Source: Lytechinus pictus
Taxonomy: Eukaryota
Assembly: GCF_037042905.1 (NCBI RefSeq)
Contig: NC_087245.1
Location: 8,806,001-8,870,000, forward strand
DNA length: 64,000 nt
Reading direction: 5' to 3'
The notes below the pieces were generated by a model. That model was not told the DNA's origin and searched no databases. It saw only the letters and a program-made list of their open reading frames with translations. Below, piece after piece: positions 522-64,000 of this stretch. The position numbers were made by a program, and so were the translations under genes. Each line of letters starts with the position of its first letter. The stretch's first letter is position 1.

Positions 522-720
522 ATCAATTCAATTCAATTTCAATTCAATTCAATTCAATTCAATTCAATTCAATTCAAAATTTATTTCAATCAATCAATCA
601 TAAAAATACAGGTATATACAAATTAGGTAAAAACATGGGATTGGGAGCCCCTAGAAGTTTTCATTAAAAAAACTTGTGAGTGGGGCACCACCATGGTACA
701 ATCAAATACAAATTAATATA
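522..720 (-). mobile_element. 3' end of a LINE (L2/CR1 group) with (TTGAA)n tail
   Basis: (AATTC)n run at 524-576, next to a stem-loop-like segment (gggagcccc...ggggcacc). This is the usual layout of a LINE 3' UTR read on the minus strand. Confidence 0.5.
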
Positions 721-3329
721 ATATCCCCACCACCTCTCATTTTTTTAAAGGTACAAATGAACCCATTCTAATCTATGGCATCATGAAAACTCATCTTTTT
801 TTATGCTTTATTTTTCAACAGCATTCTTTCTTTCTTACGTGGTATGCACAAACTCCATAGGAAATTCTTTTTTATATTCCTTTGAAAAATGCAAAGAATG
901 TTGCTTGTCGCAAATGCTACTGTAGATATTGGCGCAGATGCCTGGCGAAGGGGAAAATTAGCATCAGAGTCCAGTGTGATGATTAAATTACAGAGCAGCA
1001 ACAATTAGACATCCCCACCGATGTAAGAGACAGAATCTCTGAAGGAGTTGTTGAACCTTTGCAATACCTAGCTAATAGCAACCATTTCAAAGTGGTTTTG
1101 CGAGTTTAAAACATAGAGCTACTCTGGCTGTTTCCAACCTTGTCATGGGCAGAATCTCCACTTTTTTTTATACCCTTACGCTCGAAAGGCTGTAGAGCAG
1201 GACCAGAAATATTAATAGTTGTGCACTCTGTTTTCGCACTCTGAATTATTTTTCTTTTTCATTGATTGGTTTTACAGCTTTATTCAATCTTGAAATTTAA
1301 ACACTCAGTGTCATACTTAATGAGAAGTTTCTTTGAAGTGTTGAAGAGCACAAGTAATTTTCTTTTGTCATAACTATTATATGAATTTTCTGTAACAAAA
1401 ATACAGAGCTGCCTTGTGTCCTCAAATGTCAAATGAATAATCTTCCCATCTATATATACATGGTCGTAGGGTTATGTGTAGGTCAGCAAATCTCTCAAAT
1501 TCGTAGGAGTGAGCAAGTGAACATCTTCATCTTTCACCAAAGTTCCTAATAACTTTCCTTCAATGACGAGGTTCAAGTTTAAAACTTCTCCACTTCTCTA
1601 TCGCTTCTCCACCTGGAGCTCACCTGGGTGAGGAGCTCCTCCCAGAATCAGACTTTACTTGGTTTGGATGCGCTACAGGGTATATACGCTACTTTATTTG
1701 AAAAAGAAAAGAGATTTGTTAGACGGCCTAGGAATTATTATTTTTTAGGAGTTTTTTTTTACATAGGGGCTACCACTGAATATCTTGGGGCTATTTTTGT
1801 TCTTCAAGGCAAGGGGCTACTTATTTTTATTGCACATCAGCAATTTAGCATTCTGAGACTCACTGTGATGCCTAAAAGCTTAAAAAATTATTTCTTATAA
1901 TAATGAAGACTAGGCCAAGACTACCTGAAAGGATATAGATCTACTACCACATCTAACATAAACTCTAGAAATAATAATAATATGAATCAACACTCACCGT
2001 AAGCACATTTGTGGGCTGAGGTATCTTTATGCCACTCAGTATTGTCTATCTTTATATTCATTGTACCCACTGTAAATGGTTCTTTAATGCAACCAAATTT
2101 TTTTTCCGTCCGGCGGATCCTGGTGGTGGCGGGAATGCTCTGCAGGCCCTATGTTACAAAACAGATCCCACCACTACCAAGGCCACATCCAGTACTAAGC
2201 CAATCCAAAACCCATGATATGATTGTTGATCCGTTCTGAACTGTCTATTGTTTTTCTTTGTTCCGTTCTCAGTACTTTTAGTAGTAGTCTGAGAGACCTC
2301 TGGTTCTGGCTGTTTGGTCGAGCCAGGTCGGATGAAGTACTTTTTTATCTCGGACGATGAATCACACATACTATCACAATCAGATTCACAGCAGTTTGTT
2401 CATACATGCATATTTAGGATGCACATGGTCTCGCTACAAGCTGGCACAATCTACTTCTGCATTGTGCATTTATTTACAATCGCGAAGCTTCCAGTTTTAC
2501 GAAAGGCCTTTAATATGTGCCATCAGATCATCCATTGAAGTGATACTGATAGCAAAGGGTGAGCTGCTTGCTTTGCTGCTGATGGAACATAATTGAAAAT
2601 GATGTGAACTTGATGTGCAATATTGTTTTTCATCGTTGGCAATAATTTATTTGGGCAATTCTGAATTAAATAGTTGCCCCAAAACTTTAGGTTTTGAGAA
2701 TTTTTAGGGGCGATTTGGGTTGTCATGAGGGTGATATTGCCAGTAGCCCCCAAGCATTTCCGACGCTGTTGTAGAAATAAAAACTTTTCATTTTTTTTTG
2801 TTAATAATACTGTTATCTCCTTCTGAGAATAATTGCTCTTTTGTTCATGGAAGTTGACATCTTTGTTGCTGTCGTCATGCTTGTGTTGTTGGAATGCCAT
2901 TATTCAAGTTTCATTTCTGCCTTCTGCACTTGTCATCATGCACTCTCGCCTTAAGAAGTAGCCTCCCAACATATCTTTGATGATGCAAAAATTCTGTACT
3001 TAAGAAGCAACAAATTGTTCACATCACCAGCACTGCAATTGATAAGTGTCAACCATTGGAATCAATTTTTTGTTGTTGAAATTAATTAAAATGATATTAT
3101 GGACGATATTTAGTCATAAAAAAGGTAGTAAGATATTGATAAACAATTCAACATTTTTTAAAAGTGCACTACTGAGATGGTTTCCATACTCCTATGCCTG
3201 GAGTGAAATTAAAAAAAAAAAGGGAAAAAATTATTTGGTAAAAAGCATTTAAAACAACACCCTCTTTGTAAAGGTATCTTTAACATCTGTTAAAATTTTG
3301 TGTTGACAAGACTTTATTGCCAAGACCTG

Positions 3330-3505
3330 GGGAGCGTTTCATGAAAGGACTTGTCACAGGTTTTATCCGACAAGTCCTGTTATATCCAAAGTGGTTTTAT
3401 CCATTAGTTATCATACGAACTACATTTTACAGCCAATCAAAATCAAGGAAAGTTGTCGGATCTGGCAACTTGTCAGATGAAAATGTTGGTTGATGAAATG
3501 CTCCC
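3330..3505. mobile_element. Harbinger-like MITE
   Basis: TIR GGGAGCGTTTCAT...ATGAAATGCTCCC; flanks CTG/TTG, read as an imperfect 3-bp TSD. Confidence 0.65.
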
Positions 3506-4547
3506 TTGAAGGGCCTACAAGCTTGTTCTGAAAAAGCCCAGTTATGATTAAAGGATTCTTTACTCCTTTGTTCTTACTGAAAAAAAAATTGTATTGTGTC
3601 ATTTAAAGCTAAAAAGCTAATTCAGTGCTTGTTGCAGCATTACCACCTGTGCCCTATCAGTGGTTCAAACACTTCCATTGCAATCAAAAGCCACTTTCGG
3701 TACCTTGCCAGCACTCTCCCATAGATGCTTTTTACTTTTTTCCCCTTATCATACTGTAATACTGCCTACAATCTCCCCTTTCTTCTTTACCACATAATAA
3801 TTAATATCAAATAATTATGTCATCAGAGTGGATTTACTTTTTTTGTGGGAGGGAGTTGGGGGCTGGTTGCCGACATCTTTCCTAAATTCCACTTTTGTTC
3901 ATTCTATTTGTCCGTTGTCAATGTTTGCTAACCAAATTCCCTTGATTCTCTGGGTAACTTATTAATTAAAAAGAAATATGTATTTGACTATTTCAGGAAT
4001 ATCTTAATTTTCTTATTTTTTATTATTTATTTTATTATTATTATTATTATTATTTTTTTTTTTTGGGAGGGGCTCACTTGCAAACGATCTTAAAATGTAG
4101 GTAATGACAGCCCTCAAATTTATTGACTCACTATGCCATATTGATCCTATGAACACATTTTTTCATCATGCTATTAGTTGCCCAATCTTGTGTACATTTT
4201 CATTGTGATATATTTATATAACTTGAGTGTAATTTGGTGTTGGAAATTGAATAGAATTAACCCAAAGTTAATTTCTTGAAAATCCAAGATACATGGATTT
4301 GCATTTAGGAAATAAATGTACAGACTCTTTTAATTTCCATGTTTGTTATACTATTGTTCTGTTTTAATGTTTCTTATGAATGTACAATATTTGTATTGTT
4401 CAGATTGATTTTAATTCTATCTCCATTCTCCTATGACAGCGTGCAAGTAAGGTTTGGGTGAATTGCTCTAGGCTTGGGCTCTACCACAATGGATATTCTT
4501 ATGATCATCTGACATTATACAAAACAAGTTTAAGTTTACAGAATTCA

Positions 4548-4845
4548 ACGGTAAATAGTGATTTGGTCTATACCTGTTTTTTCATTTGATCTCTCATGCT
4601 ATATTTGTTTCCTCTTATGTCCACTTGGTCTCACACCACTTTTGATTATCAACATCATTTTCATTTGACACAGTGCAACATATTATATATTGAAGTGAAA
4701 ATTAGCCATGAGATCAAGTGATGTGATGTTGTACCAAATGATTATGAAGACCAAATTGATAGTAGTAGTGGGTTAAAGTTATGATGGTGTTAAATGGTCT
4801 GAGGATGATTTGCTACTAGACCAAGTGGATACAAACCACTTTTAC
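4548..4845. repeat. Degenerate MITE with inverted ~15-bp subrepeats (related to 8935-9347)
   Basis: ttggtct motifs on the left, agaccaa motifs on the right. Confidence 0.35.
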
Positions 4846-4976
4846 CACTTTGCTTGATATATCACCCAAGTATATGAAAGTAAACCACTAGGCTGTCACC
4901 CATAACTGGTAAGAATTAAGCCAACAATTCCCCTGGAAGGAATCAAAATCACCGGCAAGATTGTACAAGATCATGT

Positions 4977-5134
4977 GGTGGTTGTTTCATAAAGCTGTTT
5001 GCAAGTTATGAATGGCTTAACGCATGACTGGTGACCATTTCTTGTACTAAATTATATTTTCCTATGTAACTTAGTACTAAAGAACATGTGCCAGTCTTGC
5101 GTAAAGCCATGAGTAACTCTATGAAACACCCACC
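4977..5134. mobile_element. Palindromic Harbinger-like MITE (same family as 18293-18487)
   Basis: TIR GGTGGTTGTTTCATA...TATGAAACACCCACC. Confidence 0.65.
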
Positions 5135-5678
5135 CATTCTTATAGGGAATATTAATAACAAACAGAAATGTCTTTGAAAGAACAATTTTGTTTAAAAAAA
5201 AATCATAGGCCTATTCCTTGAAAATTGATTTGTAACGGATCGGGCTTGCAGAATGCAGAAAAAAGGTTGAATATTAACCCAATGAAGACTGAGCCCAAGG
5301 TCTGTTGTAAATGCACCAAATAATCAGCCAATCTCCAGTGGGTTAAATGTTTATATTTTTTTGCTCTTTGTAATATCCTTTAAACAATTTATCTTAATTG
5401 AAAATATGTTCATGTATGAATATGCAATGTATGTTGAAAAAGTTAAGCATTTTAAATTGTCTTTTAGGAAAGAGGCTTACCACCAACGGAATGCTAAAAT
5501 TCAAGGTTTTGTTGATAAAATTATATGTGCAGTTATACATTTTACTCCTATTTCCTGCAAATTGTAGTGTTTATTATTACTGAATTATTGTTCTTTTTTT
5601 ACAAAACCTATTCCCAAGTAATTTTCCCTTCATTATTTATATTTTTTAAAATATTCATCTTGATTTAATATATGAATA

Positions 5679-5793
5679 ATGATGGCTGTGGCATCTTAAT
5701 GTAGGATATACCTGACGGGGAGATGGTGTCCTGTGAATGATGAGCCTACGGGGCATTGTCCCTTAAATTGTAGGAGAACGGCATGCCCTATCA
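5679..5793. repeat. Dispersed ~115-nt putatively structured repeat, copy 1
   Basis: Aligns to 8309-8420: shares GGGAGATGGTGnCCTGTGAAT and CGGGGCnTTGTCCCTTAAATTGTnGGnGAACGGCAnGCCC. Confidence 0.6.
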
Positions 5794-6471
5794 GGTAGAT
5801 TTTTAAAATAATTATAATTGTGTAGGTCTTAGAATAGGGCTGTGTGAATTACATGACCATCAGTGATCATATTTTATTTCATGTAGACCTACATATTGTG
5901 CATACTATGATGTTCAATTCTTAATGCACCTCTCGCCCTCTGTGTGGAGTCAGTTTTGTTGATATGTCTACCACATTGAGAAGTACCACTTTTGAGACAT
6001 GTAGTAATGTACATGTAGGAACTCATATTTATGTAACTTTGGTAATTTGCAACAGTATTTTTATTTTATTCATTTTTAAAAATTTTACCAAAAGGCCCAT
6101 TTTAGTTAATATGAATTCCTACTTGTTGCATCCCTGAACAGCAAGGTGCCATTTCAGGCTTATAATTATTGTAACTGTCATTATGTAAACTACCTTGGAA
6201 ACCTTGATATAGCTTTGTTTGATGATTCCTGCTACTGTGGTAGTTACTATGAAATTTAGTTAAGTTACTTATCGTAAGTCCTTTTTGTGAAATTAGCCCA
6301 AGAACTTGTTAAAAAAAGTTTGTTATTAAGTATAATTATTTTATTGTAACAATAATCATAACAGAAAGCAGGAAATCAATGCTCTCTTCTGACTTAAAGT
6401 GTACTTAGGTTTGACTTTTTACAAGTGTTTTTTTTTTTTTAAACTAGTGCCCATATGTATCTTTTCTGCAG

Positions 6472-6493
6472 GGACCTTTGAAATCAGAAATAG
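6472..6493 (+). other. Candidate 22-nt micro-exon
   Basis: cttttctgcag|GGACCTTTGAAATCAGAAATAG|gtaaga: near-consensus acceptor and donor. Confidence 0.3.
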
Positions 6494-6843
6494 GTAAGAA
6501 ATTCAGTGTTCAAAAACTGTAAATTATCCAGTTTACAAACTAAATTTCCTTATTTATATACCGGTATTACAAATTGCACATGATTTCAAATTTTTTATCA
6601 ACCAAATATAACTATGGCATTAAGAATACCAAGTAGAATTAGTAAATTTACTTCCTTGACTTCATCACCTTGTTTTGTTATGATGTTTCATTGTACACTG
6701 TATATGGGTATACCCATAGTTATTTTCACTATTGCAATTTGTAATTCCTCAGCTGGAGTTGGCTCGCTATCTTGAAGCAAGAAGCGAAGAATCATAAGAC
6801 CAGGAGTTTGGAAATATATTAGTGTGAATGCAAGAATATCATA

Positions 6844-7117
6844 AGAGGTGTGGCTCAGTGGATTAGTCTTCGGACTTTGAACCACAAAGTCCGGGGTTCA
6901 AATCCCACCGCAGCACTAGCGTCCTTTGGCAAGGCGTTTATCTTCATTTGCCACTCTTTACCCTGGTATAGTAAATGGGTACCCGGTAGGTAGGAGTTCC
7001 TTGAATGCTCGATGCTTCGATCAGGGTAGCCATGCTAAAGCCCGGGTAATAGTATGCAATGCAATGCTAAGGAACATTTTAATTAAACGATATATAAATG
7101 TTGCATATTATTATTAA
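6844..7117 (+). mobile_element. tRNA-derived SINE (SINE2) with Deu/Nin-like central domain
   Basis: Pol III A box TGGCTCAGTGG (6851-6861) and B box GGTTCAAATCC (6895-6905), central tcctttggcaaggc...taaatgggtacc block, (TAT)n tail. Confidence 0.85.
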
Positions 7118-8308
7118 TATTGATCTCCGTGGAGATCAGCTGTACGTCACAGTGTAAAAAGGTTTGAAACTCGACGAAAGAAGTATCGTGATGATATGCG
7201 GGTAGCTAGAAAACTATGTCAACAGATGAATATCAATGACTTGACAGCTAATTTCTTCTGCCCCACGTGCATGAGAAAATTTTTAATCTAGGATTGGCAT
7301 TGACAGCCCTTCCAAGACTCAATCATGCAAGCAGTCATCTTACTCTATTCGAAGGGATTGCTAAGAGATTATTATTACAATGTTTCTTGCAGACAAATTC
7401 AAGGAAGAAAGTTGAAAAGTATTGCATGGTATTGCGTGCATTTCCTTGGTCCTATTGGTTGATATCTAGATAAGTACTTTTTAGTACATAAACTGGTTAG
7501 AAATGTGTGATTCTGTGAATTTCTTAAAATTTCTTTATTTCATTGGTCCATTAGTCTGCAGGAAATTGCAGCAATTACCAAGAGCATCAGTCAGGCATAG
7601 GATGCTGAGCCCTACTACCATGGTAGTTGCCATTATGAGAAAATTACGACAGTTGTAATTTATCTATGAAACAGACCCCTGACCTGTGTGTTTTGCACAC
7701 AAAAATTATACCAAATGGATTGCACAAAATAAACTTCTTGCTCGTAATATCTTCATTAATTTTTATTAATATAGTTCTTTTTTGTAATAATTATGTTTAC
7801 CTAAATATTGCATCAACTGCAGGATTATTATTTTTGTGTACAGTAGGCTATATTGTATAAACTACCAGATTGTTATGAGAGACTGTTTGCATGAATCATT
7901 ATGAATCTTGCGTCAGTATGTTCACTCTGCTGCTCCAACCTTTACCCATCAAACCGTACAGCAGGTACATAACTTCTGGAGATCAGTTCACCTTGTATGA
8001 AGACAACCTGGGCCAAGTAACATTAAGCTTAATGATTGATCATTGGGCTGATTTCGACGATTGATCATACACAATGATTCATGTATTCAATCATAGAAAT
8101 CAACCTCACAATCAAGTGATAAGCTCTATCTTACAGTGCCCTGATCTGCTTTACTTCATCATTCATGTCTTGGAAGTGTAGTAATCAACAATTGAAACTG
8201 AAATCTGCTATCAATAATCTGAATTCATGCTGGTCAAGAAGTCATCACTGGAAGTCTACTTGATTTGGATTTTTCAACAACGAATAAAAAATATGTCAGA
8301 CTTAATAC

Positions 8309-8420
8309 GTGGTGGTCATGTCATAGTGTAGGAATGTCTGGCTGGGAGATGGTGACCTGTGAATTCTGTACCCACGGGGCCTTGTCCCTTAAATTGTGGG
8401 TGAACGGCACGCCCAGTCAT
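8309..8420. repeat. Dispersed ~115-nt putatively structured repeat, copy 2
   Basis: Homologous to 5679-5793. Confidence 0.6.
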
Positions 8421-8934
8421 ACTTTAGCTTTTGCTTTTTTTGTAGGGTGTAGCACATTGTGCCTTGACAAAAGTTTGGGCCATGTTTTGCAGCTTTAATC
8501 CTGAAATAGGCTTCCATTCCTTTCCAATGTTCTATTTTCAGCATGGAAAAAACAACAGTGAATGCAGGCAAGCCACTGTGAAGAAGCTTAGCAGGATTTT
8601 GGCTGAAGGACATGGCCTAGACTTCTGTTTAGGTGCTTTAAATACAGATGCCACTGCCATCGTTTGCTATTAGCCAAGTGCTCTCAATGTTAATGTCATT
8701 TTTGTAAGAATAAAGGGTTCATCATGAATCTATTATACAGGAGTTCATTATCTTGGTTTCTTATTCACATGCAAATCATCGATGGACAAAACGTGTGTAT
8801 TTTTCTTTTTTCTTTTAATTTCTTCTCTGTATGAATATAATCTTTGATTAGATGATAAAGAATGTTATCTATGAAAATATTTCATGGAATAATAGATTCA
8901 GAGCAAAATTGTCTGTAAATACAAGTGGCATTGT

Positions 8935-9347
8935 GGTTTATTTCCAATTCATCTAATGCCAATTCGTTTAATGCCAATTCTTCTAATTGCCAACTTGTCT
9001 ACTATCATTTGGTCTGCTATCAGTTTGTCTACTATCCACATAGTCTAATTGCAAATTCGTCCACTCTCCATTTCGTCTTGTAACCAGTTGGTCCAATAGC
9101 CATTAAGTCCATATACCATTTGGTCTGATAAAGTGTTAATTGTACAAAATGAATGAAAATGAAATGTATATTAGACCAACTGGTTATGAGACGAGATGGC
9201 CATAGACGAAATGGCGATTAGACAAAGTGATGATTGGACCAAATGGTGTTAGATGAAATGTTGATGGACGGAATGGCATTAGACTAAATGAAAGTAGACA
9301 ATGTGGTGAGTGGACGAGTTGGAAATAGAAGAATTGGCAATTTACGG
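8935..9347. mobile_element. Foldback MITE with inverted arrays of ~15-bp subrepeats
   Basis: Left arm has repeats like ccaattcgtctaatg and right arm has cattagacgaaatgg; terminal tccaattc/gaattggc. Confidence 0.7.
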
Positions 9348-9356
9348 GTATTGTTA

Positions 9357-9517
9357 TACCTCAGTCATATTTGCCTTACGGCGGCTGTGTGGCGAGTCGA
9401 TAACAGCTGGCTAACATTTTTGTACCGGCTTTATATAGGTGGCTAGAATAAAAATGAATAAACCGTTTTTTTTCGACTCGCCGTACGGCCGCCGTTGGGT
9501 AAGTATGACTGAGGTGT
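9357..9517. mobile_element. Palindromic MITE (same family as 17259-17408)
   Basis: TIR ACCTCAGTCATA...TATGACTGAGGT; internal inverted GGCGAGTCGA/TCGACTCGCC. Confidence 0.75.
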
Positions 9518-9656
9518 AATTCTTTACATTGCCAACTACATAATTGATATGAGTCATGTAAGGCATTATTCGCAACACTGAGATTTTAATAATTTAAAGA
9601 GGTCTTAATAGAGCCTTTATGAAATTGGATACACCAATGTTTCTATACATGTAAGG

Positions 9657-9882
9657 CAAGGCTTGACCTTTGCACTGGCCTGTGGCAACAATACACAAGT
9701 CAGGCCACCAAAATTCTGTAAAAGCCCATACTTGGCCTGGATGGGCTACCACAGTTTTGATAAATTGTAATGTTTTCTATTGCTTTAGGGCCACCAAATT
9801 TGCTTTGAGGGCCACCAAAAATAAATTTGATGATTTTGGTTGACTGATCGGGCCACCAAGAAAAAAGTTAGTGTGGAGCCTT
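9657..9882. mobile_element. Possible hAT-like MITE with GGGCCACCAA subrepeats
   Basis: Four to five (g)ggccacca motifs; degenerate AGGGCT...AGCCTT ends. Confidence 0.35.
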
Positions 9883-11189
9883 ATGTATGGTATCTCAATT
9901 TTGAGGAGATTTGTCCAGTGTCCAATTCAAATAATTTCAGTAGAATATCGAAGTTCTATGATCATTGCTGCATTGATGGAAGACCACCTTTATCATGACA
10001 TGTCACTTGGAAAGGAGAATGCCCTTTTAGTCGATTAGACATTTTTCGAACCTAGAAATGTTCTTTCCGATTAAGTTTTTTTCTTGATTCGTGTTCCTAT
10101 GGGGTCCTAGAACAAATTCAGCTTGGTTGCCCAAACGGCAACCTTGGGTAACTTTGCTAATTTGCATAAATCCAAAATGGCCGCCAGATACCAACTTAAA
10201 AACTGAACTTGTGAATCCCTTGCAGCAGAATGATGAGGAATACCTCTTTTTATGGGTTTTGGTGTGCAAAGAATCCATTTCTAATATCGATTTTGCTACA
10301 TAAGGTGATCTTCAGGCTAACTCCAAGATGGCCGCCAGATGCCATCTTGAAAAATTAGATTTGAACCCCTTGCACCAGAATGATGAGTAATACCTCTTTT
10401 TATGCGTTTTGGGGTGTGTAGAATCCATTTATGTTATCTATTTTGCAATATAAAGTCATCTTCAGGTTAAATCCAAGATGGCCGCCAGGTGGACGCCATC
10501 TTCAGAAATTAACTTTTGAACCCTTTGCTCCAGAATGATGATCATTACCTCTTTTTAGGGGATTTGGTGTGTGTAGAATCCATTAATTTTATAATTTTAG
10601 ATTATAGGATCATCTTCAGGTTTAATTCAAGATGGCCACGAGATGTCATTTTGGAAACTTGAGCTTTTGAATCACTAATCCCAGAGTACTATATAACAAC
10701 TTATAATAAGGGGTTTAGGTGGTGTTTCTGTAAGTTTTTCTCTTTTTCAAAAGATGGTCTGCTGCAGGGTAAATGGCCTATAACGTATAGTAAGATGGCT
10801 GACAGGCCTAAGCTAAGAAAAATATGACTGAAACCACTTTCCGGACACTGATAGGACCTCTTTGGAAGGGTTCATACAGCGGTGAACACTTCCTCTTGAC
10901 TTTTTGTCGCTCAAAATTTGTTGAACATCTGTCACGAAATTACATATTAATTTTGTACAGCCTTTGAGCAAAAAACAATATATTTCTAATTTGAACAAGT
11001 TCGGGAAGCTAACTTGATCATTCTTAATTCAACTCGCCCCTAGGTATTCAGGGATATCCTTTAAGCTTCCTCACGGTCTTCACTATCCCGATCTAAACAA
11101 GTCTCAAAATCTCTTCCTCGACATCCTCCATCACGACACTTTCGTCATTTCCAGTTTTGACATTGTCATGATTGTGAACGATAGTGCAT

Positions 11190-12260
11190 GGATTGTAGAA
11201 TTCCACTTTACCTGAACTGTAGAATGTCGTACATGACAAATGCTCTTTGTGGCATCCACATATCTCAGTGCTGCATCTCTTACCCTGTGACCTACATCAT
11301 GTACATTGACAGCGAATTACATCAATCGGTTCAGGTGGAGTAGGGACACCTAGAGCAATGACAGCAATGGGGATTTCATCTCGGATCTCCCATCCAAATT
11401 GAGCTATATCCCCGGGCTCATCAAGGGGCTGGTACTGATCTACAGTTATCAAAAGAGCTCGAAGCGCATGCAGCAACAGGTTATTAGATGTTGGAGGTAG
11501 GGCCATTACTTTAGGATTCTTTTTCTTCTTGTTGAAGAGAGAGAAGCGAGCTGACTCCATAGACACGTCTGGTTGATGGCCATACATAGCAAGACAGAAG
11601 GGTTTTGCTGCTTCCATCAGATCTGTGAGAGTGGTCCCTACCTTTCCAAGTATCTTAGCCAAACCTTGACAATCCCTGGCAAGTATAGTGTGTTGAGTGC
11701 ACTTATCTTGCCTTTGATTTCGTGTCGCATCCACTGAGGGCATGAACACCAAGCAATTGCAAACATTTTGGTCCCAGGTCAACACAGATTGTATTGATAT
11801 CCAGTACTGTACCATCGATCTCACCGTTCCATTTGTACCTTGCACTATAGCTCCACCTGATTAACCCAATAGTCAAGCAGGACAAAAATGTCTGTGTCAT
11901 CGCTATAAGCACACAAAGCACCCTCTGACCACAGCTTGCTGCAAGACATAGGAGATCAAGGTGATATCTACCTCATCATGAGCAAACACACCATCAGCAA
12001 GTGTCTCCGTTGTTGTATGCTACCCTAGACCATGGACCTACCATTAGGTCCATGCCTAGATTGATGGTAGGCATACTCAACAAGCTTGCCAGCCTCCGTT
12101 TGTTGTTCTTGCTCCTCATGATATCTCTCGTTGGCAGGTAACTGGTGATGGAGAACTTATGGTCTATGATAACTTCACCAGCTCTTAGTATTATCTCATA
12201 ATCATTGACAGAAATGTCATTGTGCACGTCGAAAAGAGCACTCTTCTTTCTTCCATCTGT
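11190..12260 (-). pseudogene. Academ protein C-terminal relic: XPG/PIN-like nuclease plus Cys-rich zinc finger
   Basis: Motifs across frames: HDEVDITLISY, SDDTDIFV, HALSGCDT, LPPTSNNLLLHALRA, GW, then IRCQC...C...CGC...LSCT; frameshifts and stops present. Confidence 0.8.
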
Positions 12261-48595: not shown

Positions 48596-48618
48596 CTGAA
48601 AAGTGAGGAATGAACATA

Positions 48619-52212: not shown

Positions 52213-55210
52213 TTATTTGCTAACGAACTGATTATATTTTGCTGGCATCTGGATTCCTGTTCTTGTGCGCGTAGATTTGGTAGGCCAGTTCGATTGGTTC
52301 GTTACGCGATCAGCGCTTGTCGACTGAGTCTGAGAGCTGTTCGCGGGTACCTCCTTAGCACGTGATTCGACTGGTTTAGCCGTCACTTCGGCGTAGGATG
52401 GTTGCTGACGTGTCTTCTGACCCACTGGCTGGAATATAGTAGCATCTTCTTGGCTACCATGCGTTGTAGGGCTCTCTGTCTCAGCAATCTGTGTGTCTGG
52501 AATGAGAGGTTCAGCTGTTGATCTCAAGAACCTCCGGTTCCTCCTTAACATTCGGCCAGCTTCTGTTTGAACCAAGAATGACCGTGGACCAACTTTCTCC
52601 ATGCAGATTCCTCTGCCCCACTCCAGGCCACGATTCTTAGGCTGGATGCGGACCTGTTGCCCAATCTCTAGCTCAGGAAGCGGAGTTGCTGTTCGGTCAT
52701 AGTATTTCTTGGCTTTCTGTTTCTTGTGACTGATGTGTTGTGATACACCTCCTATTACTTGTGGTTTAAGGAGTGCTTCTGGTGTTGGTAGTAGTGTTGG
52801 TTCGTCGAGCCATCATCTTTTGTGCCGGGCTGGCACCACTATCAGCAGGCGTATTCCTCCAGTCCAATAAAGCCAACTGGACGTCTTCTCCTTGTTTTGC
52901 TGCTTTCTTGAGTAGAGTCTTGGCAATTTTCACTGCTGATTCTGCTTTTCCATTGCTTTGAGCATGCAATGGTGAAGAGGTTATATGCTCAACCTCCCAG
53001 TCGGCAACAAACTGAGCATACTCCTTGGCAACAAACTGGGGTCCATTGTCAGTTATCACCTTGTCTGGACGTCCATACCGTGCGAAATGGCCTTTTGTGC
53101 ATGCCACAATGACTGCTGCCCTTGTGTCACCTGTTATCTTGTCGATCTCCCAGTAATCACTGTAGTGGTCAACAGTTATCAGATAGTCCTCATTGTGGAG
53201 AGTGAAGAGGTCCTGTGACACGATACTCTGCTCGGCCTGCTCGGAATATCATATGAAAACATCGGCTCCTTTTGTTGTTTTGGCTGAAAAGCATTGCAGG
53301 TGCTACATTGTGTCACCTTTTCTTTCGCCTCTGCCTGCATACCTGGCCAAAAGAGAACATCCCGAGCGCATCTAACACAGGCATCGACTCCGAGGTGACT
53401 GCTATGCACTCCATTCAGCATTAGGGCTCTCATGGCTGATGGAACAATGACTTTCTCGCCCTTGTATAGAACTCCATTCTGTACCGTTATTTCGTCTCGG
53501 TAATTGTAGTACTCGCGTACTACTACAGGAACATCATCCTTGGTCTCCAACCATCCGTTCATTACTACCGACGTCAGTGTATGCAGTGCTGGATCTTGGA
53601 GCGTCTCCTTTTGCAGCTGAATAGATGTTGCATCACTGATTCGGAGGTACTTGGTCTGATTGATTTGTTCTATCTCCTGATAGATCTTATCTCTGCCTTC
53701 AGTGGTCGGTAAGAACGCTCTGCTCAGCCAATCAGCGATATACATTTCTCTGCCTGGACAGTATATCACATCCAGAAGGTAGTTCTGGAGTCTTAGCATC
53801 ATCCTTTGGAGCCGTTTTGGGGCACTATGTATAGCCTTCTTGAAGATTGGTACGAGGGGTTTGTGATCGGTATGCACTGTTACATCTCTTCCCCGTATGA
53901 AGTGGTCAAACTTCTCGCAGCTGTATACTATAGCCAAGCACTCCTTTTCAATTTGGGCATAGTTTTGTTCACTCCTTGTCAAGGATCTAGATGCAAAGGA
54001 TACTGGCTGCCCATTCAGAAACAAGGTCGCTCCCAGTCCCTTCTCCGAAGCATCACATCGTATGGTGACCTCCTCTTTTACGTCAAAGTACTTGAGCACT
54101 GGAGCTTGTGTGAGGAGTTGTTGCACCTCTGAGCGTTTCCTCAGGTTCCGGTCTCCACTCAAAGTGCACATCCTTGTCAGTCAAACGTCCCAGAGGCTCC
54201 GCCACATCTTATAGTCGAGGCAAGAATCTTGAAAGGTAAGTGACACTACCCAATAGCCTCTGGAAACCTTTCTTGTCAGTCGGAGTTGGCATCTCCACAA
54301 CAGCCTGTACCTTCTTTGGATCTGGTTTAAGGCCAGTTGATGTCAAAAGATGTCCCATGTATGGCACTTCACTCAGTCGTAATCTGAGCTTCTTGTTCAA
54401 GGTCAGCCCGACCTTTCTTGCTCTTGCCAAGAACTTGCGGAGATTATTGTCGTGGTCTGCAGGGGCTTCCTCCAGATTAGCACCACTACCATATACTAGG
54501 AATTCATCTGCCACAACATCAACACCAGATAAGCCTTCAATGATCTCATGTTGCCTTCTCTGAAACTCTTCCGGTGCCGTACATATGCCAAAGGGCATAC
54601 GAGTCCATCTATAATGACCGAATGGCGTTGCAAATGTCGTCAGTAAACTGCTCCTTTCTGTCAGCTTCACTTGCCAGAAACCGTCCTTTGCATCTAGCAC
54701 TGAGAACACCTTGGCCTTGGCAAGCTTTGGTAGGATGTCATCCATCGTGGGCATAAGATAGTGTGGTCTCTTCAGCGCTCTGTTCAGTTCTCTCGGATCC
54801 AAGCAGATTCTGAGTTTCTGATTCTGAGCCTCTCTGCTTTAGCTCATCAAGCTTCTGCTTCAGTTCTCCCTTCAGAGGCACTACCACCTTCCTAGCTAAG
54901 TTCTAGACTGAGGGAATGGATGGATCGATCTCCATGTCGTAGTCACCTGGCAGGCAACCAAGACCCTCAAAGACATCAGCATAATCATCAATAATACTGT
55001 CCTCCATTACGTTGATTTCATCAGTAACATTGACAGTAATCGGTCCCATGTCGATGGATGTCTTGCTGGACAATAGGGGTATGTGTCAGACATCAACTAT
55101 CTTGAATGTGATATCATGCTGCTTGGTACCATAACGACAAGTGTACGTCTTCTCTCCCAGAACTGGAATTATGCTGCAATTCAACAGCCTTATTCTGGAT
55201 TTGCTTGGAT
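52213..55210 (-). pseudogene. Ty3/Gypsy pol relic (PR C-terminus, RT, RNase H, IN); no LTRs seen
   Basis: CLDPRELN, LDAKDGFWQ, RMPFG, VADEF (ADD mutated), CDASEKGLGA, YAQIEKE, TDHKPL, HSSHLG...CxxC, TDNGPQF, SNGKAE, PRSFLV..RRNR; frameshifted. Confidence 0.9.
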
Positions 55211-55443
55211 CGATGCATGGTTGTAAGAGTAACAGTTAAAAGCTTCAATCAGAACTCTATTGAACACATTCAATTAGTAACACTTTTACACATTGGCACC
55301 AAAAGGAACAAGAAATTGTTTTTGAACTGGCATAGTATTTTCAAGTTTGCAGTAGCCCTCATCTGCTCCACTCTTCATAATATTTTTTTCTGCAGGTTAT
55401 GACCGATTGTAGAAGAATGCTTTAAATATTTTCAGTCTTTAAA

Positions 55444-55522
55444 TAGTCAACTCTGCCTAAGTCGAATCTGTTGGGACTGAAGAAATTGCTTCGACTTTTT
55501 TTGACTTAGGCAGAGTTGACTG
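55444..55522. mobile_element. Tiny pogo/Tigger-like MITE
   Basis: AGTCAACTCTGCCTAAGTC...GACTTAGGCAGAGTTGACTG followed by TA. Confidence 0.7.
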
Positions 55523-55941
55523 TACCTTCTAGTGGGGAAATCAGAAATGATTTTTGTAACATTAATTAGGATATTATTACAGCCTCAATATATTTGATAA
55601 GTTTCATTTCAAGCTACAAAGAGAAGGTTTCTCCTCCCCCCACATCAAAGTTTGCAAATGAAGGACACGACAGTTCAACACGTGGTGTATTATTTACCAG
55701 AAGTAAGAACATTTTCTAAAAATGCATGATGAATTATCTACTTTTGAATTTTGATTCCAAGTCAAGGATTTACCAATCCTTTAAATTTTCAAATATTTCT
55801 TTGGAACAAGCTCCTTATTACTTACATACTGCAGGACAACATAGAGCCAAATTTGTAGCAAAGTTATCCCGATTAACACCACCTTACAGTATTTGTTTCT
55901 TTGATTTTACTGTTCATTCGTATCAAGACTTTTTCTTTTAA

Positions 55942-56609
55942 AGGGTCACTATTACGGAAATACATGTTAGCTTCTATTGATGTATATGGGTTCATACATT
56001 AAGAAATTAATAACCGTTTCATAAAAATGTTTCCCATATTTATAATTAATTTTTTCTGAAGTTTTTTTCACCTAGCTAAGGAACGCCCCTAAAAATCCTC
56101 CAGATATTCATGAGTACCTTGTGACATCACTTGTCACTCACAAGCAGGAAAAATCAACATAACAATGCACAGTATCATGCAACTCAATGAGCGAGCTGCT
56201 AATGCTCACAATAGCAGGACAGATTTTTATACAATGCCACCTCACAACATTTCTTACTTCACTGCTTGGACATGCCAGACATAGCATAATCTGAATGGTT
56301 GTTAGGTGGTATTCATTGAAAAATCTGTCCTGCTATTGTGAGCATTAGCAGCTCGCTAGGTGAGTTGCATGATATTGTGTATTGTTATGTTGATTTTTCC
56401 TGCTTGTGAGCGACAAGTGATGTCACAAGGTACTCATGAATATCTGGAGGATTTTCGGGGGGCGTTTCTTAGCTAGGTGAAAAAAATTTCAGAAAAAAAT
56501 TAATTAAAAATATGGGAAACATATTTTTATGAAACGGTTATTAATTTATTAATGTATGAACCCATATACATCAATAGAAGCTAACATGTATTTCCGTAAT
56601 AGTGACCCT
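55942..56609. mobile_element. Kolobok-like foldback element with ~290-bp arms
   Basis: TTAA TSD; AGGGTCAC...GTGACCCT termini; arms 55942-~56228 and ~56319-56609 are highly similar inverted repeats. Confidence 0.85.
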
Positions 56610-57225
56610 TTAAATCAAGACCTATTCCCTTAACAGATCTTACAGGAATATTAAAATAAACACTGATCAGGGTACACATGGAGCAATTGAAAAATGCTAC
56701 TTTAACCAAATTCATGGTTGACTGGTGTGAAAACTTGTAAGAGAGTCAATGTAATGGTTCATAGTGATGCGCATCAAATTAATAGATTAGCCGGACAGTC
56801 AATGTTTTTCACAGTTCAAAACTGGTAATATTGGAGTCTAGTTGAACTCATGCTTTCAATCAGTTTTGGATCTGGCAGTCGCTGGATGATGCTATTGTGG
56901 TGTTCCAGGGAAATGTCTCTCTTCAGCGGCCACCTGAAAATACCTCTGCTTCCTTGTACTACCTCCATGTAGTTGTTACCTCATCAGCTAACACAGCCAT
57001 AACCTAATAATGATGACAAGATAAGGGAATATTCTTTTATCATGAACATCAAAGTGAAATGGCATTTGTGAAAAAAGCATTGTGAGATAATTTCATTCAT
57101 TCCTGGCATTTCTTTAAATATACAAACTTTTGGCAGAATAGTGATATTCATGGTCTCATATCAAACAACTTACATTATTAGGAGAGTTATAAATTATATT
57201 AAATGGGTTTTTGATATCTGATTTA

Positions 57226-60200
57226 TAGTCGATTTCACAGTCTCATAGGCTCAATACACCAACCTAGAAATGTTCTTTCCGATGAAGTTTTTTTCTTGAT
57301 TCGTGTTCCTATGGGATCCTAGAACAAATTCAGCTTGGTTGCCCAAAGTTGCCGTTTGGGCAATTTTGCTAATTTGCATAAATCCAAAATGGCCGCCAGA
57401 TGCCATCTTGAAAACCTAACTTTTGAACCCCTTTCCCCAAAATGATGAGTAATGACTCTTTTTATGGGTTTACAGATGTGTAGAACCGATTTCTGTAATC
57501 ATTTTTGCAATATAAGGTCATCTTCAGGTCAAATCCAAGATGGCCGCCAGATGCCATCTTGAAAAATTGACTTTTGATCCCCTTGCCCCAGAATGACGGG
57601 TAATACCTCTGTTTAGGGGTTTTGGGGTGCGCAGACTCCATTTCTGCTTTCTATTTTGCAATGGAATGTTATATTCAGGTCAAATCCAAAATGGCCGCCG
57701 TATGACGCCATCTTGAAATATCAACTTTTTAACCCTTTGCCCCAGAATCATAAATAATAACTCTATTCATGAGTCATTTGGTATGTTGATTCAATTTATG
57801 CTGTAATTTTGCATAAAGGATAATCTTCAGATCAATTCCAAGATGGCCGCCAACCGCCATCTTGAAAAATATACTTTCCGAGGCTTATACGTGTTAGAAC
57901 TAATGTAAAGGGATTTCAGTAAGAATACTCATTTCTTTTATTAATTCTCAAGTTTTTGTCCCAGAATCATGAATAATCCCTCTTTTCGTGAGTTATTTGG
58001 TATGTTGATTCCATTTCTGTTAATAATTTAGCAATATAGGATCATCTCCAGGTCAAAATAATCCAAAATGGCCACTAAACGCCATATTAAGAAAAAAACT
58101 ACTTCCCGAGACTATTGAACCTTGAATAAGTACTCTCCCTAATAATAGGTTACTATTATGTATGGGAGCTCATGTAAGAGGATTTCAGTGAGAGTGATTC
58201 ATTTCTTTTATCACTCCATTTTTAGTTCGAGGTAATTCAAGTAATGTCTTAGATGGTCAGATGGTTGATAGATTTCGTCATTAACAGCTTACTTTAGAAT
58301 AAAACCATTCCAAGGTTTGGGCTATGATTTCGGGAGTTCTAATCCTTTTTTTTTTTTTTTTCTGTCCAACCATACTTTTCCAGTGAAAGTATTATTTGAA
58401 TTAAAAAGTGATTTCTTCGTATTTTTTTTTTTAAATAGTTAACTTATTAACTTCCTTCATAATTATTATTGGACTTTTCCTCCTGACAAGAGCCATTGAC
58501 TTGGTCAGCAGGAGTGCACTATTTAGCCTCCTGCAGAAGATAGGCTCCCCAAAGACTGTTCCATGGTCAGGATGGATCTCATTCGTGAAATGTTGTGCGA
58601 AAACGATGTCACCCCCTGCCTCTCAAGAGGTGAGAGTACAAGACCTAGTCATACATAACAGCTGCCTGTCCTGTGCATGTAAGGGTTTTGGATCATCCAT
58701 CAGCCTGTGAGACAGAAATCCTGATCGACTCAAGACACCGACTAGTAGCGACTGTCCTCCAGATATCTATATCAACAGCACGCACTCGTCTGGTTGTGGT
58801 GGACTCCTCACCGACCTTGGATCGACTATATGTCTCTAGCTCCCTTTCACTGGACAAGTATATAAGCACCAGGATAGTAAAATCTGTCACAGTCATGACC
58901 AAGCTCTTGTGCGGAAGTAAGTCCTGGAAAACGTACGCCGACCAAGAAAAGTGGCTAAACACCTTCCATGTCAGCTGCCTTGGACGTATCATGCACATTA
59001 AATGGCAGGACAAAATGAAAAATACAGAGGCCCTTCAGCGTATGTGCTGGCATCCCAAGCTTATTCTCGCTCCTTAGTCAAAGGCACCTCAAGTGGTTGG
59101 TGCATGTTCGCCGCATGAAACCTTGGCGAATCCCTTCTTGGATTCGCCAAGGTTAGTTGAGCTGTGTGATTGGTCTCATCCCCATCGGTAAATCACACCT
59201 CCGTTATAAAGACACCTGCAAATGTGACTTAAAACTTGCCGGCATATACACTAAGTACGCTTATGAAGATGTAGATGATAGTCGCCATTCTATGTAGAGC
59301 TACTAAGTACAGGGGTCAAGACGTCAGAAAGTAATCGGAATGCTAAATTGGCAGACCAAAGACGTAGGAGGAAGGCTAGGGCAGCATCTCTATATAAACG
59401 TGTCTCAGTGCCGTTCTCCTTCATCTGTACAAATTTGCTCTAGAGACTGCCACTATAGAGTGGAGCTCTACAGTCACTTTAGAAAATGTAAGACCTAGCG
59501 GTACACCATCGTCTTTTAAGGCGAACTGATGCCTACCAATCATTGGACACATTGATTTAGAAAAAAATATTGAGAAAACACTTTCAAATTCAAATAAGAC
59601 CCTAAAAGCCTCTACAGTACAAAAGTATGGATGGACATTAAAAAAATAAAAATACACGCGAAATGGATCATAGCCCAAACCTAAAGAGGATTCATTCTAA
59701 GTTGAGCAGTTAATGTCGAAATCTGACATCTAAGATATAACTTCACCTTGACCTTAAACTTGATAAGTAATAAAAGAAATGAGTACTCTTACTGAAATCC
59801 CTTTACATTAGCTCTTACACGTATAAGCCTCGGAAAGTATTTTTTCAAGATGGCGGTTGGCAGCCATCTTGGATTTGATCTGAAGGTTATCCTTTATGCA
59901 AAATTACAGCATAAATTGAATCAACATACCAAATGACTCATGAATAGGGTTATTATTTATGATTTTGGGGCAAAGGGTTCAACAGTTGATATTTCAAGAT
60001 GGCGTCATATGGCGGCCATCTTGGATTTGACCTGAAGATGACATTATATTTCAAAATAGAAAGCAGAAATGGATTCTGCACACCCCAAACCCCTAAACAG
60101 AGGTATTACTCGTCATTCTGGGGCAAGGGGATCAAAAGTCAATTTTTCAAGATGGCATCTGGCGGCCATCTAGGAATTTACCTGAAGATGACCTTATATT

Positions 60201-60456
60201 GCAAAAATGATTACAGAAATCTCTAAACCTCTAAAACGAGTCATTACTCATCATTTTGTTGAAAGGAGTTCAAAAGTTAGGATTTCAAGATGGCATCTGG
60301 CGGCCATTTTGGATTTATGCAAATTAGCAAAATTGCCCAAACGGCAACTTTGGGCAACCAAGCTGAATTTGTTCTAGGACCCCATAGGAACACGAATCAA
60401 GAAAAAAACTTCATCGGAAAGAACATTTCTAGGTTCGGAACATGTCAAATCGACTA
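57226..60456 (+). mobile_element. Academ copy 2 (non-autonomous, opposite orientation to copy 1)
   Basis: TAGTCG...CGACTA with TTA/TTA TSD; ~700-bp TIRs of ~151-bp units homologous to copy 1; end-specific sequences are swapped relative to copy 1. Confidence 0.85.
58480..59540 (+). pseudogene. RTE-clade LINE 3' fragment inside Academ copy 2
   Basis: DLVSRSALFSLLQKIG.P, LNTFH..CL.RIM.IKWQDK..NTE.L, QR.L.W..HV.RM...RIP; RTE-like 3' end ccatcgtc...gatgcc. Confidence 0.75.
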
Positions 60457-60559
60457 TTATATCTTCAATAAATGTAAGGGAATCTACTTGGGCAAAAGTA
60501 TGGAGAAACAAGAATATCTGCATGTTTATATTCTTAAATACCTACTTAATTACATACAA

Positions 60560-61210
60560 GCTTAGTGTTCCTACCTCTCCCGTGTAAGTCTTGGTTTTTT
60601 TCCCAACAGGTATAGCAACTTTCACGAACTGTCCTACAGTGACACCGCAATCTTTGTCGGTCTGAGGATGGGCATTTTCAACGGACTCTGGAATGGCTTG
60701 GTACTGTACTGTGTCTTCCAAAATAGAGACATTGATTCGAACTCAGGTGATCTCTTCATTGTCAATTTCATCTTCCAAGGAGCTTTCACTTCTGCTCTCG
60801 ACCTCTGTGGAAGGTTCCTCATCATGCTTGTTGCCTACGCTTTCTGAACAGTCTACTCGTCTTATGTTTGTCAGTTTCCAGTCGTCCACAATCTCTGAGT
60901 TTTGACACCTTCCTTCTGGAACAGAAGAACATCCGGAACAGAAACAAGAAAATCTCCGTGCTTTGATGACATAAGGGTCCAATGCTTTGATGGCATGAAG
61001 TTTCCTTGTCCCTTGGACTGTTCCCACATTGCTCCTCTGTGGTCTGCTTCTACTTATCTCCGATGGGTCTACCATAATAAATGTCCATCTTGAATGGTTA
61101 CATTGTTCATCTACGTTGTCTGGCTTTGCCATCGTCTTGCTACAGAATTCCACAAATGATTTGCTCTCTGTTACTACAACATCATTGTCGGCGCGAACTG
61201 CTTGTGACAC
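60560..61210 (-). pseudogene. Sola2-like transposase C-terminal relic
   Basis: SQAVRA, VQGTRKLHAIK, RRFSCFCSGC...C.N; homologous to 22960-23290. Confidence 0.65.
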
Positions 61211-63282
61211 AGAGTTCTTGATTATTCTTGGTCGGTCTGATAAGCTCTTTATTTACAAAATGTATTCACATGTTACATCTATCTTCGTTGAAAACATGTT
61301 TGGTACTTGGAAACTCCTGTGTGTGTTATGCTGTAGTATTGATTGGGAAATAAAGACTGTGCTCTTGTGTTCTAGCACAAGACTTCGGCACATGTACGTA
61401 ACCCCCGAATGTACGTAACTAAAAGACAGACAAAAACTTTGAGGGGTGCCATCTCAAGGGCCGGCCGAAATTGTTCATAGCTCTTTCATCATACCCCGTG
61501 CGCTCACTCTCCACGCAATCGTTCAATGCACACCTGTTACAAAGTTGACTTCAATCACGGAAGAGAAAGACGCGTTACGTACATTCAGAAACCAGACAGA
61601 CTTTCATCAGAGCAAAACTTAATCGTTTTTATTAAAAAAATGAGCGACATAAGCAAAGAAAATCATTTGCAAGTTAAATACAATCTTATGTTGTAACAGA
61701 GTATGGTACAACATGCTGTTTATCCCTTGTATTAAGATAGTGATACTGTAGTGAACGTACGTATCGGGAAAGACAGACATTTATTCTTTAACAAGGAAGA
61801 ATACAGACACTTCTTATTAGTACTTGCGGAAACAGAAACTGCTCAATTTTTTGGGAGGATCCCCAAAGAGTTCTCTTCATGATAAACGCAGAGTTTATTA
61901 TATCCTCTTACCTTTCATTATTTTTTTAAACAGAAAGAAATCATACATGCTTTCGTGCTAGAAAAAAAAATTGAGTACATGCGCCAAATTTGTCATTTCA
62001 ATATTATTTTTGTAGAAGTTACTAAAATCCTTGTGCATAGATGTATTTATTATGTAATTAGATAATTTATAGTATAAAAACACAAAATACAATATTCTGT
62101 AAACAATTTTCTTTTATTTATTGACATTATAGTTTTTCTTTTTCATTGACCCCATTACTATAGAATACCCCAGGTGTAAATCAAAATTTTGAAAATTCAT
62201 AACTTTTAAACGGATTATCCGATTTTGCTCAAATTTTCAGTTTGATCATTGTATTTTTCTTCATTCACTGACAGCAATGTCTGTGGTTAATTCTCCTTTA
62301 AGCTTTTAATAAGGTTGTTTAAACTCTGACAACTGTTAATTGATTACCTGGAATCTCAATAATCATGATAATTGTCCTCTGCACCAGCCTATTGTATTCA
62401 GTCAGCAGGCCTGTCAGTGTCGATCACTCAGTCAGTGTCACCACTGGTCACATACACAGTTTTTCTAACTTGTACAACTCGACCCTCTGGCGATACGGAT
62501 TTGTACCGGATATCAAAACACTTGACCAACATCAAAGCAATATCATATTCTTCCCTTGAACCAAAACATAAAGTTCTATCACAAGAATTTGGGTGTGATG
62601 GACAAGCATAAAACTGAAGATCAAAATCAAAACAAAGAGTGCCAATTTGCTCACTGTATTGACAAGAAATAGTTTTGGAATAACATGGACTCCATGCCAA
62701 ATTTGGCAGGCTGAAGGTCCTAAAAGCCATTATATTTTGTTTTAAGGATGCTAGATCTAACTAAACTAAAGAAGAGACACTAGTCGATTCAGGTTATGCT
62801 ACCACCTACGGCTTAGCCTAGCCTGGCCCTTGACCTCGTGTAGGTGTACAAAGTACTAGTAGGCCAAATATAAAAAAGCACGCACATGTGCTGTGCGGTA
62901 TATCACGCGCGCCAGTAGTAGCGCGCATATTTCCGGTCGATCGTCCGCGATAATTGTATCTATACTGCCCTGGTGATTGCGATATTGTGAATGAATAAAA
63001 GGGATTATTGTGTGTCGTGAGGGCACCCGGTATTTAACATTGTTAGAAAACAACAATGTGTTTCCAATTTTGTCATCAAACTTCACACAAAGCAGAAAAG
63101 TAGAAATTTCTGCATAAGGAACCGGTACTTGTAATAGAAATATACAAATTTATTTTCGTTTAAAACGAAAAAAATGAGCTGTACAGCCAATGTACTCTTT
63201 TGCAAACCTCGATATATACTATACCCACAATTTAGGGTTGCAAAGGTGATCACTCAGTGAGGTTACAAAATTACTTATTGAT

Positions 63283-64000
63283 CTTAACGATAGTTGGCGC
63301 TATTCTTTGTCTACCCCAAACCATTTGAACAATCAAATCACATCTCTTCAGAAAAAATGCGGGTCGAAACAATAGGACACGAATATGTTCTCCTGTTGGC
63401 TGATTGGAAGCTGCTCCTTGTAGAGGTTTCGAAGATTAATTTTCTTCTCACCTCGAATCGAGGCCTTCACACGAATTGTGCGGAAAGGCTCATCAAAGTC
63501 ATACCTGAGGAGGATGACATTAGGCTCACTCCTCTGATATCGGAGCTGCTTGATCTTAAGCTACTTGACATTGTTTCCCTCTACATCTTTCTTCATATTC
63601 GTGAACAACCGAGCATCCAAGTCTTTGAAGTCAATGAGGTCCTCATGCTGAAGCTGTACAACGGCATATGGATTCTGCTTGCATGCCAACTTAATGACAT
63701 TCACCCACTCCTGTGGATGGTAATGGATGCCCTTTTCTTGGAGTATTCTATGGTCGAGTGGATTAAATCCACCTCCATGTGGGTGTGTCCTGTTTCCAGG
63801 AACTTCTGGTCATGACATCCAATGGGCTGGTTCTTACAACATAATTAAGGCAAGCCGACAAATATCTGTTGTGGTTCTGACCACCGCAACAGTCAGAGAA
63901 GAGACTTACATGTTTAGTGGATGATGGCAAGTCAAACAATGCTCTCATGAGGCAAGTGCCTATTTCACAATCACCTCTCTTGCCTTGGTGTTCTGACCAA
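63283..64000 (-). pseudogene. Sola1-like transposase relic (runs off the window end)
   Basis: LFSDCCGGQNHN and (frameshifted) KFLETGHTHMEVD.IHSTIE. Confidence 0.75.

Follow-up and report, generated by a model that had tools for sequence, protein, structure and literature searches.

We describe a region of the sea urchin Lytechinus pictus genome (assembly GCF_037042905.1, contig NC_087245.1, positions 8,806,001 to 8,870,000 of the forward strand; 64,000 nucleotides, hereafter the window) which lies directly behind a plus-strand gene coding for an IQ domain-containing protein C-like (IQCC-like) protein, and in which most relics of transposable elements (TEs) are antisense to that gene. We tentatively propose that the field of relics downstream of IQCC is a candidate cluster of PIWI-interacting RNAs (piRNAs) of the read-through type, whose antisense TE pieces would yield piRNAs and would be kept by selection, a plausible reading to which we give somewhat less than an even chance. 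The original prediction for this DNA had proposed a uni-strand, flamenco-like piRNA cluster from the strand bias of the relics; that the minus-strand relics are antisense to a plus-strand IQCC-like gene is new relative to it.

The gene was recognised through a plus-strand exon (L018:7025-7159) that matches a 550-amino-acid protein of Lytechinus as well as the S. purpuratus ‘IQ domain-containing protein C-like’ protein. Its exons span, on the plus strand, from -26212 to a stop codon near -1735 in window coordinates, which we use throughout for positions in the 100 kb flanks on each side (264 kb in total). Because this stop codon (L018:8217-8270) falls 1.7 kb before window base 1, the window lies 3' of the IQCC-like gene and the minus-strand relics are antisense to it. 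The last coding exon, with the C-terminus, is common to three urchin species and precedes the window in all three. As an alternative, the original prediction had suggested that the region might simply be intronic to a coding gene on the plus strand; the shared last exon excludes this for the known coding exons of IQCC, and host exons flanking the window on both sides were found neither for IQCC nor among the downstream open reading frames (ORFs) scanned, short and non-coding exons aside. Inside the window its remark that no host gene is evident holds, with no host domain among 30 of the 32 ORFs of at least 120 amino acids and 150 shorter ORFs, the latter drawn nearly all from the 202 of 60-119 amino acids, so that exons below 60 amino acids were mostly outside the scan. 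ARAGORN found no tRNA genes, and no host domain was seen downstream to +164 kb in the flank ORFs scanned (150 of 169 of at least 100 amino acids).

The window (1..64000) forms part of a CpG-depleted, TE-relic-rich domain, presumably transcribed in the plus direction, which extends from the IQCC-like stop codon to about +68 kb as judged by CpG content or to +93.5 kb as judged by relic orientation. It opens with a mostly low-copy, T-rich and CpG-poor stretch (1..8900), which is a candidate for a long 3' untranslated region (UTR) of the plus-strand gene or for the start of read-through. The plus strand carries no AATAAA from the IQCC stop codon to 2776 (4.5 kb), the first ATTAAA lying at 433; between -1.7 and +10 kb, AATAAA occurs 8 times on the plus strand versus 18 on the minus strand (p=0.076).

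We assessed the relics using Pfam, tblastn and other homology searches, atlas scores and a family-free scan of amino-acid composition, which was trained on 16 ORFs of the region (7 from the window) and gave the same picture as Pfam. Of the 13 minus-strand and 2 plus-strand relics originally counted, ten on the minus strand are supported by these analyses and an eleventh, Academ-like, through its ORFs alone; both on the plus strand stand. An EnSpm relic and a LINE (long interspersed nuclear element) tail drop out, since the ORFs of 38672-39132 gave no match and no EnSpm relic was recognised by eye, and the supposed tail is without a protein match and consists of just a TCAAT array at 523-577. 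The bias is therefore real in the window and weaker than the p of about 0.007 first given (10:2, p=0.039; 11:2, p=0.022), with 14,470 coding bases on the minus strand versus 2,375 on the plus strand. Of four high-copy elements that could be oriented, two lie on each strand (2:2), and both plus-strand elements are among them, whereas the other nine relics are all on the minus strand (9:0; Fisher p=0.077).

Measuring TE orientation in the flanks, a check that the original prediction had called for, revealed that the bias continues downstream and stops upstream of IQCC. Outside the window, from the IQCC stop codon to +128 kb, six elements are on the minus strand and one on the plus strand (one-sided p=0.0625). 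The first minus-strand relic, an L2-like reverse transcriptase (RT) at -700..+50, may lie inside the IQCC 3' UTR. The other minus-strand elements are a P0028-like element in three pieces (81210 to 69661), a DDE of Harbinger type, a second Gypsy, a second copy of an RTE-carrying element with terminal inverted repeats (TIRs) at 82.7-86.4 kb and a weakly supported CR1-like tail, while a DIRS-like element at 95.8-104 kb is on the plus strand; kinase-like and unknown pieces adjoining a Sola1-like relic were left out of this count. Upstream of IQCC we counted three elements on the plus strand (a tandem L1-like array scored as one event, an ORF for an endonuclease and an RT) and one on the minus strand (rva_4), and a C2H2-bearing repeat occurs there twice in each orientation. 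The bias is therefore local and begins at the IQCC gene end. Thus the field starts close to the 3' end of a host gene that runs in the same direction, and its fragments are mostly antisense to that gene, both in the window (10-11:2) and outside it (6:1), with p values that are modest given the nesting of elements. A divergent promoter, with plus-strand relics upstream and minus-strand relics downstream, was considered and rejected, as the plus-strand ORFs upstream, located at -9760, -5032 and -4139, proved to be exons of IQCC.

The observed/expected (o/e) CpG ratio drops from ~0.9 to 0.2-0.5 at about -5 kb, inside the last exons of IQCC, and remains mostly low to ~+68 kb. In spacers the median is 0.42 (13 hand-picked low-copy tiles) versus 0.85 in 38 flank tiles, with neighbouring tiles not independent of one another, and no CpG-rich patch was found in 1-9000 (o/e per 1 kb, 0.16-0.54). 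According to the available text of PMC11292947, methylation concentrates on transcribed genes in most invertebrates, and on TEs in some species. Because of this concentration on transcribed genes, the depletion suggests, although it does not prove, germline transcription of the domain.

In searches for DNA copies, which scored 33-40 candidates each, six of the nine relics outside the high-copy group were covered, and these had none or a single partial copy (39-40 candidates scored); none of 13 relics had a second copy within 264 kb, so that, as in flamenco-type loci, each TE family occurs once; the RTE-TIR element, outside these 13, occurs twice. A ‘Sola2’-like transposase fragment (fragment a, 23004..24210, minus strand) has 89% identity over the queried ORF to P0002, a protein of Diadema antillarum that is multi-copy there, and 78% identity to a protein of Asterias. 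When the Diadema protein was used as the query, the window scored highest of all loci in the genome, and the next relative of full length had 38% amino-acid identity (51 of 83 candidates scored). For a broken, 5'-truncated Gypsy pol with RT, RNase H and integrase (52213..55079, minus strand; Pfam), the next relative in the genome has 60% amino-acid identity (121 of 1273 candidates scored). Judged by these candidates, both relics are orphans, lacking close relatives of their family elsewhere in the genome. Horizontal transfer of the Sola2-like element among echinoderms is possible, because fragment a is close to the Diadema and Asterias proteins and is without a close relative in its own genome. 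The orphan status resembles what a trap retaining a single piece per invader would leave, as in flamenco, where 49 of 52 TEs are single-copy in the part of PMC4120762 available.

These observations could be brought together as follows. In some cells of the germline or embryo, a polymerase starting at the IQCC promoter would run past a weak poly(A) signal and yield a long plus-strand RNA; the TE pieces that are antisense within this RNA would be cut into piRNAs; and over time antisense insertions would be kept and sense ones purged. Such a model would explain why the low-copy relics are all on the minus strand, why the plus-strand elements are only high-copy ones and why several families survive here alone. 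The germline methylation, the transcription, the read-through, the piRNA production and the selection are all steps that we infer for this locus. Some form of plus-strand transcription of the domain is probable, and the transcription unit implied by the original prediction gains indirect support from the IQCC-like gene upstream, the CpG-poor spacers and the bias outside the window, while the want of a transcript over one 9.9-kb stretch in two stranded RNA runs, described below, speaks against it.

The names Sola1, Sola2, Academ, RTEX, RTE, CR1, Gmr1, SET element and DIRS are working labels, in part those of the original prediction. The ORF remnants of the Academ-like element (ORFs 11096-12380, minus strand), recognised by ORFs and the composition scan alone, sit in a high-copy TIR element (10025..16646, minus strand), and nested inside it is a high-copy LINE (12562..16061, minus strand; Pfam) with ORF1, endonuclease and RT, the last two at 13057-16061. 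Further along lies a compact mosaic that runs from 25844 down to 21766 and joins MULE, tyrosine-recombinase (YR)-type, Sola2-like and CR1-like coding middles with gaps of 0-220 bases and with their ends missing. It comprises, all on the minus strand, a low-copy internal fragment of a CR1-like RT (21766..22790; Pfam), for which one partial DNA copy at 89% was found among 40 candidates scored and on which no LINE 3' tail was seen; Sola2-like fragment a; the YR-type fragment (24276..25571; 62-78% to P0030, atlas lead 0.91); and the later part of a MULE transposase (25542..25844). The earlier part of that transposase (33198..33825, minus strand; Pfam) belongs to the same single element, as 33379-33825 and 25542-25844 are colinear on P0047, and the element is split by two nested high-copy non-coding TIR elements or MITEs (miniature inverted-repeat TEs) of 6 kb without assigned strand (26270..32370). 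A 210-amino-acid ORF (25236-25868, minus strand) fuses the MULE piece (amino acids 1-100) in frame to the YR-type piece (amino acids 100-210). No copy of the mosaic was found elsewhere among 40 candidates scored, and the repeats of at least 250 bp include no terminal pair that encloses it.

Beyond the MULE lie a decayed Gypsy integrase fragment (36723..37104, minus strand; tblastn 7e-10) and a high-copy Gmr1-type Gypsy derivative (39237..42200, plus strand, coding 39375-41221; Pfam, 89-95% identity), whose domain order is integrase C-terminus, then RT, then RNase H. The ‘SET element’ relic (47266..48705, minus strand; tblastn 1.7e-11), belongs to a broad family shared with the YR-type fragment, and none of the 39 candidates scored for it was a close DNA copy. 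The Gypsy pol is followed by the high-copy RTE-TIR element (57214..60463, plus strand; composition scan), which carries its RTE-like piece at 58649-59176 and has TIRs of ~700 bp related to those of the Academ-like element; its second local copy (L020:8695 to L021:6470) lies in the opposite orientation. Sola2-like fragment b (60575..61246, minus strand; 8e-14 for 60575-61225) is distant from fragment a, and a ‘Sola1’-like transposase relic (63387..64806, minus strand; atlas 0.97) runs past the window end and adjoins further minus-strand fragments. These include kinase-like and unknown Cys/His-rich fragments (L019:721-1920, minus strand), where CpG o/e reaches 0.17, the minimum of the region; the kinase-like label is a working name based on a motif, with no Pfam match. 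The kinase-like stretch at 65.2-65.9 kb was tried as a host exon and rejected for its broken frames and the same lack of a Pfam match.

Several further structures were noted in the flanks. Downstream, a 327-bp direct repeat of 97% identity (L019:5916-6240 and L020:2511-2837) brackets 6.3 kb of sequence in which the Harbinger-type relic lies and by which the P0028-like element is broken up. Upstream of IQCC, the tandem array (L010:4537 to L012:1422, plus strand) consists of three head-to-tail L1/Tx1-like LINE copies ~5.85 kb apart, two of them with intact ORF1 (518 amino acids, with a zinc knuckle) and ORF2 (~1302 amino acids) and the third differing at many positions. Four copies of the C2H2-finger-bearing repeat (L014:2509 to L015:5943) occur in either orientation with short tandem arrays between them, and amid them is a near-intact rva_4 integrase ORF. 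A UDP-glucuronosyltransferase host gene (L013:824-5276, minus strand) also lies upstream of IQCC.

A number of observations weigh against a read-through piRNA cluster. A search of a run index built on 31-letter words gave no run on record as RNA that contains 47300-57200, a result neutral as to its transcription, and no small-RNA run. In RNA data aligned to a test stretch of 9.9 kb (47300-57200), for which 4 of the 24 runs with matching words were aligned, two stranded, ribosomal RNA-depleted runs of unidentified tissue (X21 and X23; about 1.3 Gb each, equal to 6% of each run) gave essentially no reads on either strand in the unique parts. Their reads fall on repeats alone, unique bins reaching no more than 0.14-fold depth bar one bin of 1.7 in X23, and the alignments to the test stretch show no splice joints of the GT-AG type. 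This counts against constitutive transcription of 47300-57200 and leaves the read-through model standing, because read-through at the mammalian clusters known as piC-DoGs is specific to germ cells in the available text of PMC11615739; a similar specificity could explain the blank runs here. The introns of IQCC are largely without CpG depletion (0.84 for the whole gene, with an undepleted long first intron), and private mutations in three young elements, at 3 of 156 CpG sites versus 44 of 4935 others, are too few changes to be informative on local methylation or strand asymmetry. On the plus strand AATAAA is undepleted across 10-68 kb (44 plus versus 36 minus), the base skew is weak (-0.014), the edge at +93.5 kb was picked after looking, and orphan TEs may be common across this genome. 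Counting the four adjoining relics of the mosaic once reduces the in-window bias to 8:2 (p=0.11) or 7:2 (p=0.18), and 232 windows of the genome carry scan notes, among which several with p<0.05 are expected by chance; for these two reasons the in-window sign test alone is not convincing.

Two further runs were aligned. In X19, near-identical contigs cover 48009-52087 with a depth rising through 2, 2.6, 5.6 and 9.1 and end sharply just before an A-rich tract on the plus strand; a gradient of this form would be expected from oligo-dT priming of an RNA of the plus strand. As X19 might be a DNA library, this is a lead only. Contigs of X3 (organism A, RNA guessed) match the Gypsy at 52153-55224 at ~95% and hardly its flanks, and may come from a relative in another species or population; being strandless, they were not used as evidence. 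X3 is the one run aligned out of 18 of the 24 that have a small share of matching words (0.05-0.07) and are guessed to be RNA. Seventeen runs of organism A, from 5 studies, contain 5-7% of the words from 47300-57200.

Other explanations have to be weighed against a read-through cluster. The domain could be transcribed on the plus strand with no piRNA role at all, as leaky read-through, a long non-coding RNA or an intron of a non-coding or unseen gene, with sense insertions purged solely because the poly(A) and splice signals that they carry would interfere. Purging of this kind would account equally well for the CpG depletion, the bias and the contrast between low- and high-copy elements; antisense bias is known from mammalian introns, as the available parts of PMC3517506 and PMC3088655 describe, and short exons were mostly outside the ORF scans. 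It does not, however, predict that orphan families are retained or that coding middles lie in a compact mosaic; the ORFs scanned contain no host exon; and it needs a transcript, of which X21 and X23 show none over 47300-57200. We consider it rather unlikely. Less probable again is an ordinary graveyard of TEs, in which chance, nesting and the picking of an extreme window created the bias and CpG loss reflects methylation unrelated to transcription. The p values of just 0.02-0.04, or 0.1-0.2 with the mosaic merged, the number of windows with notes, the blank RNA runs and the choice of the downstream edge after looking all fit such an origin, whereas the continuation of the bias in sequence outside the window (p=0.06), its change upstream of IQCC and the onset of the strong CpG drop inside the last IQCC exons do not.

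The mosaic itself raises the question of whether the shared orientation is a by-product of joining, through capture by one large element, template switching by an RT, or tandem duplication. That its four middles lie so close together without their ends, two of them in one frame, is what joining would produce. Tandem duplication was rejected, as none of the 13 relics is duplicated within 264 kb, and a template-switch chimera made by a LINE finds no tail on the CR1 piece; the mosaic is without a copy among the candidates scored, it has no enclosing terminal repeats of at least 250 bp, and joining could not account for separate relics distributed along 90 kb, leaving this origin quite improbable. 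A strict flamenco-type cluster, with its own promoter, a spliced precursor and Gypsy targets, would share the one-strand bias, the single copy per family and the neighbouring gene upstream. The ‘flamenco-like’ label of the original prediction nevertheless fails on Gypsy content, since Gypsy makes up only 2 of the 11 minus-strand relics and an element of Gypsy type lies on the plus strand; together with the lack of a CpG-rich patch in the first 9 kb and of GT-AG splice joints in the 9.9-kb stretch, this makes a strict flamenco-type locus very improbable.

If the read-through cluster reading is correct, a broader and more doubtful proposition would be that sea urchins keep gene-coupled, one-strand read-through archives of antisense TE coding middles, including those of horizontally acquired families. 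Such archives would span DNA-transposon, recombinase, LINE and long terminal repeat (LTR) families, some of them no longer present elsewhere in the genome, and a gene-body-like CpG loss would make the domains findable from sequence alone. As the locus is largely low-copy, its small RNAs would map uniquely. Confirmation would extend the known range of read-through clusters from insects and mammals to an invertebrate deuterostome, an echinoderm, here aimed at DNA transposons; refutation would leave an ordinary TE-rich spacer. The literature covered, which was incomplete, contained no study of sea-urchin clusters of the unistrand or read-through kind.

Several known systems resemble this locus in part, as far as the available portions of the papers describe them. 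Like flamenco and flam-like loci, it combines a strong strand bias with one copy per family and with some elements that seem to be horizontally acquired (PMC10643416, PMC4120762). The bias of flam-like loci is driven by Gypsy elements, an enrichment not seen here (PMC10643416), and flamenco has its own promoter, 1.7 kb from DIP1 (PMC4120762), a feature that does not appear to fit this field. Antisense TEs in host 3' UTRs offer a simpler parallel, as host transcription through an antisense TE suffices for piRNAs; these sources are single insertions in fly genes, whereas the field behind IQCC is a multi-family one of ~90 kb (PMC13226689). The core piRNA clusters of mosquitoes, which arise by read-through from upstream genes, lie directly behind a same-direction host gene, are one-directional and hold antisense foreign fragments with a trap-like content, as here (10.1101/2022.08.22.504762); their cargo is non-retroviral viral elements, in contrast to the DNA-transposon, YR, LINE and Gypsy relics of this locus, which is known from DNA alone. 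The mammalian pre-pachytene piC-DoGs, such as those of Zim2 and TMEM181, likewise have dense antisense TE fragments over 50-100 kb downstream of a gene, although they target young LINE-1 elements and endogenous retroviruses while many relics here belong to families with no close member left in the assembly and the RNA is a predicted one (PMC11615739). Because the locus shares two positional features with read-through clusters, its start near the 3' end of a same-direction gene and its mostly antisense fragments, and their defining RNA features are predicted for it, we would place it beside them as a candidate rather than a filed member.

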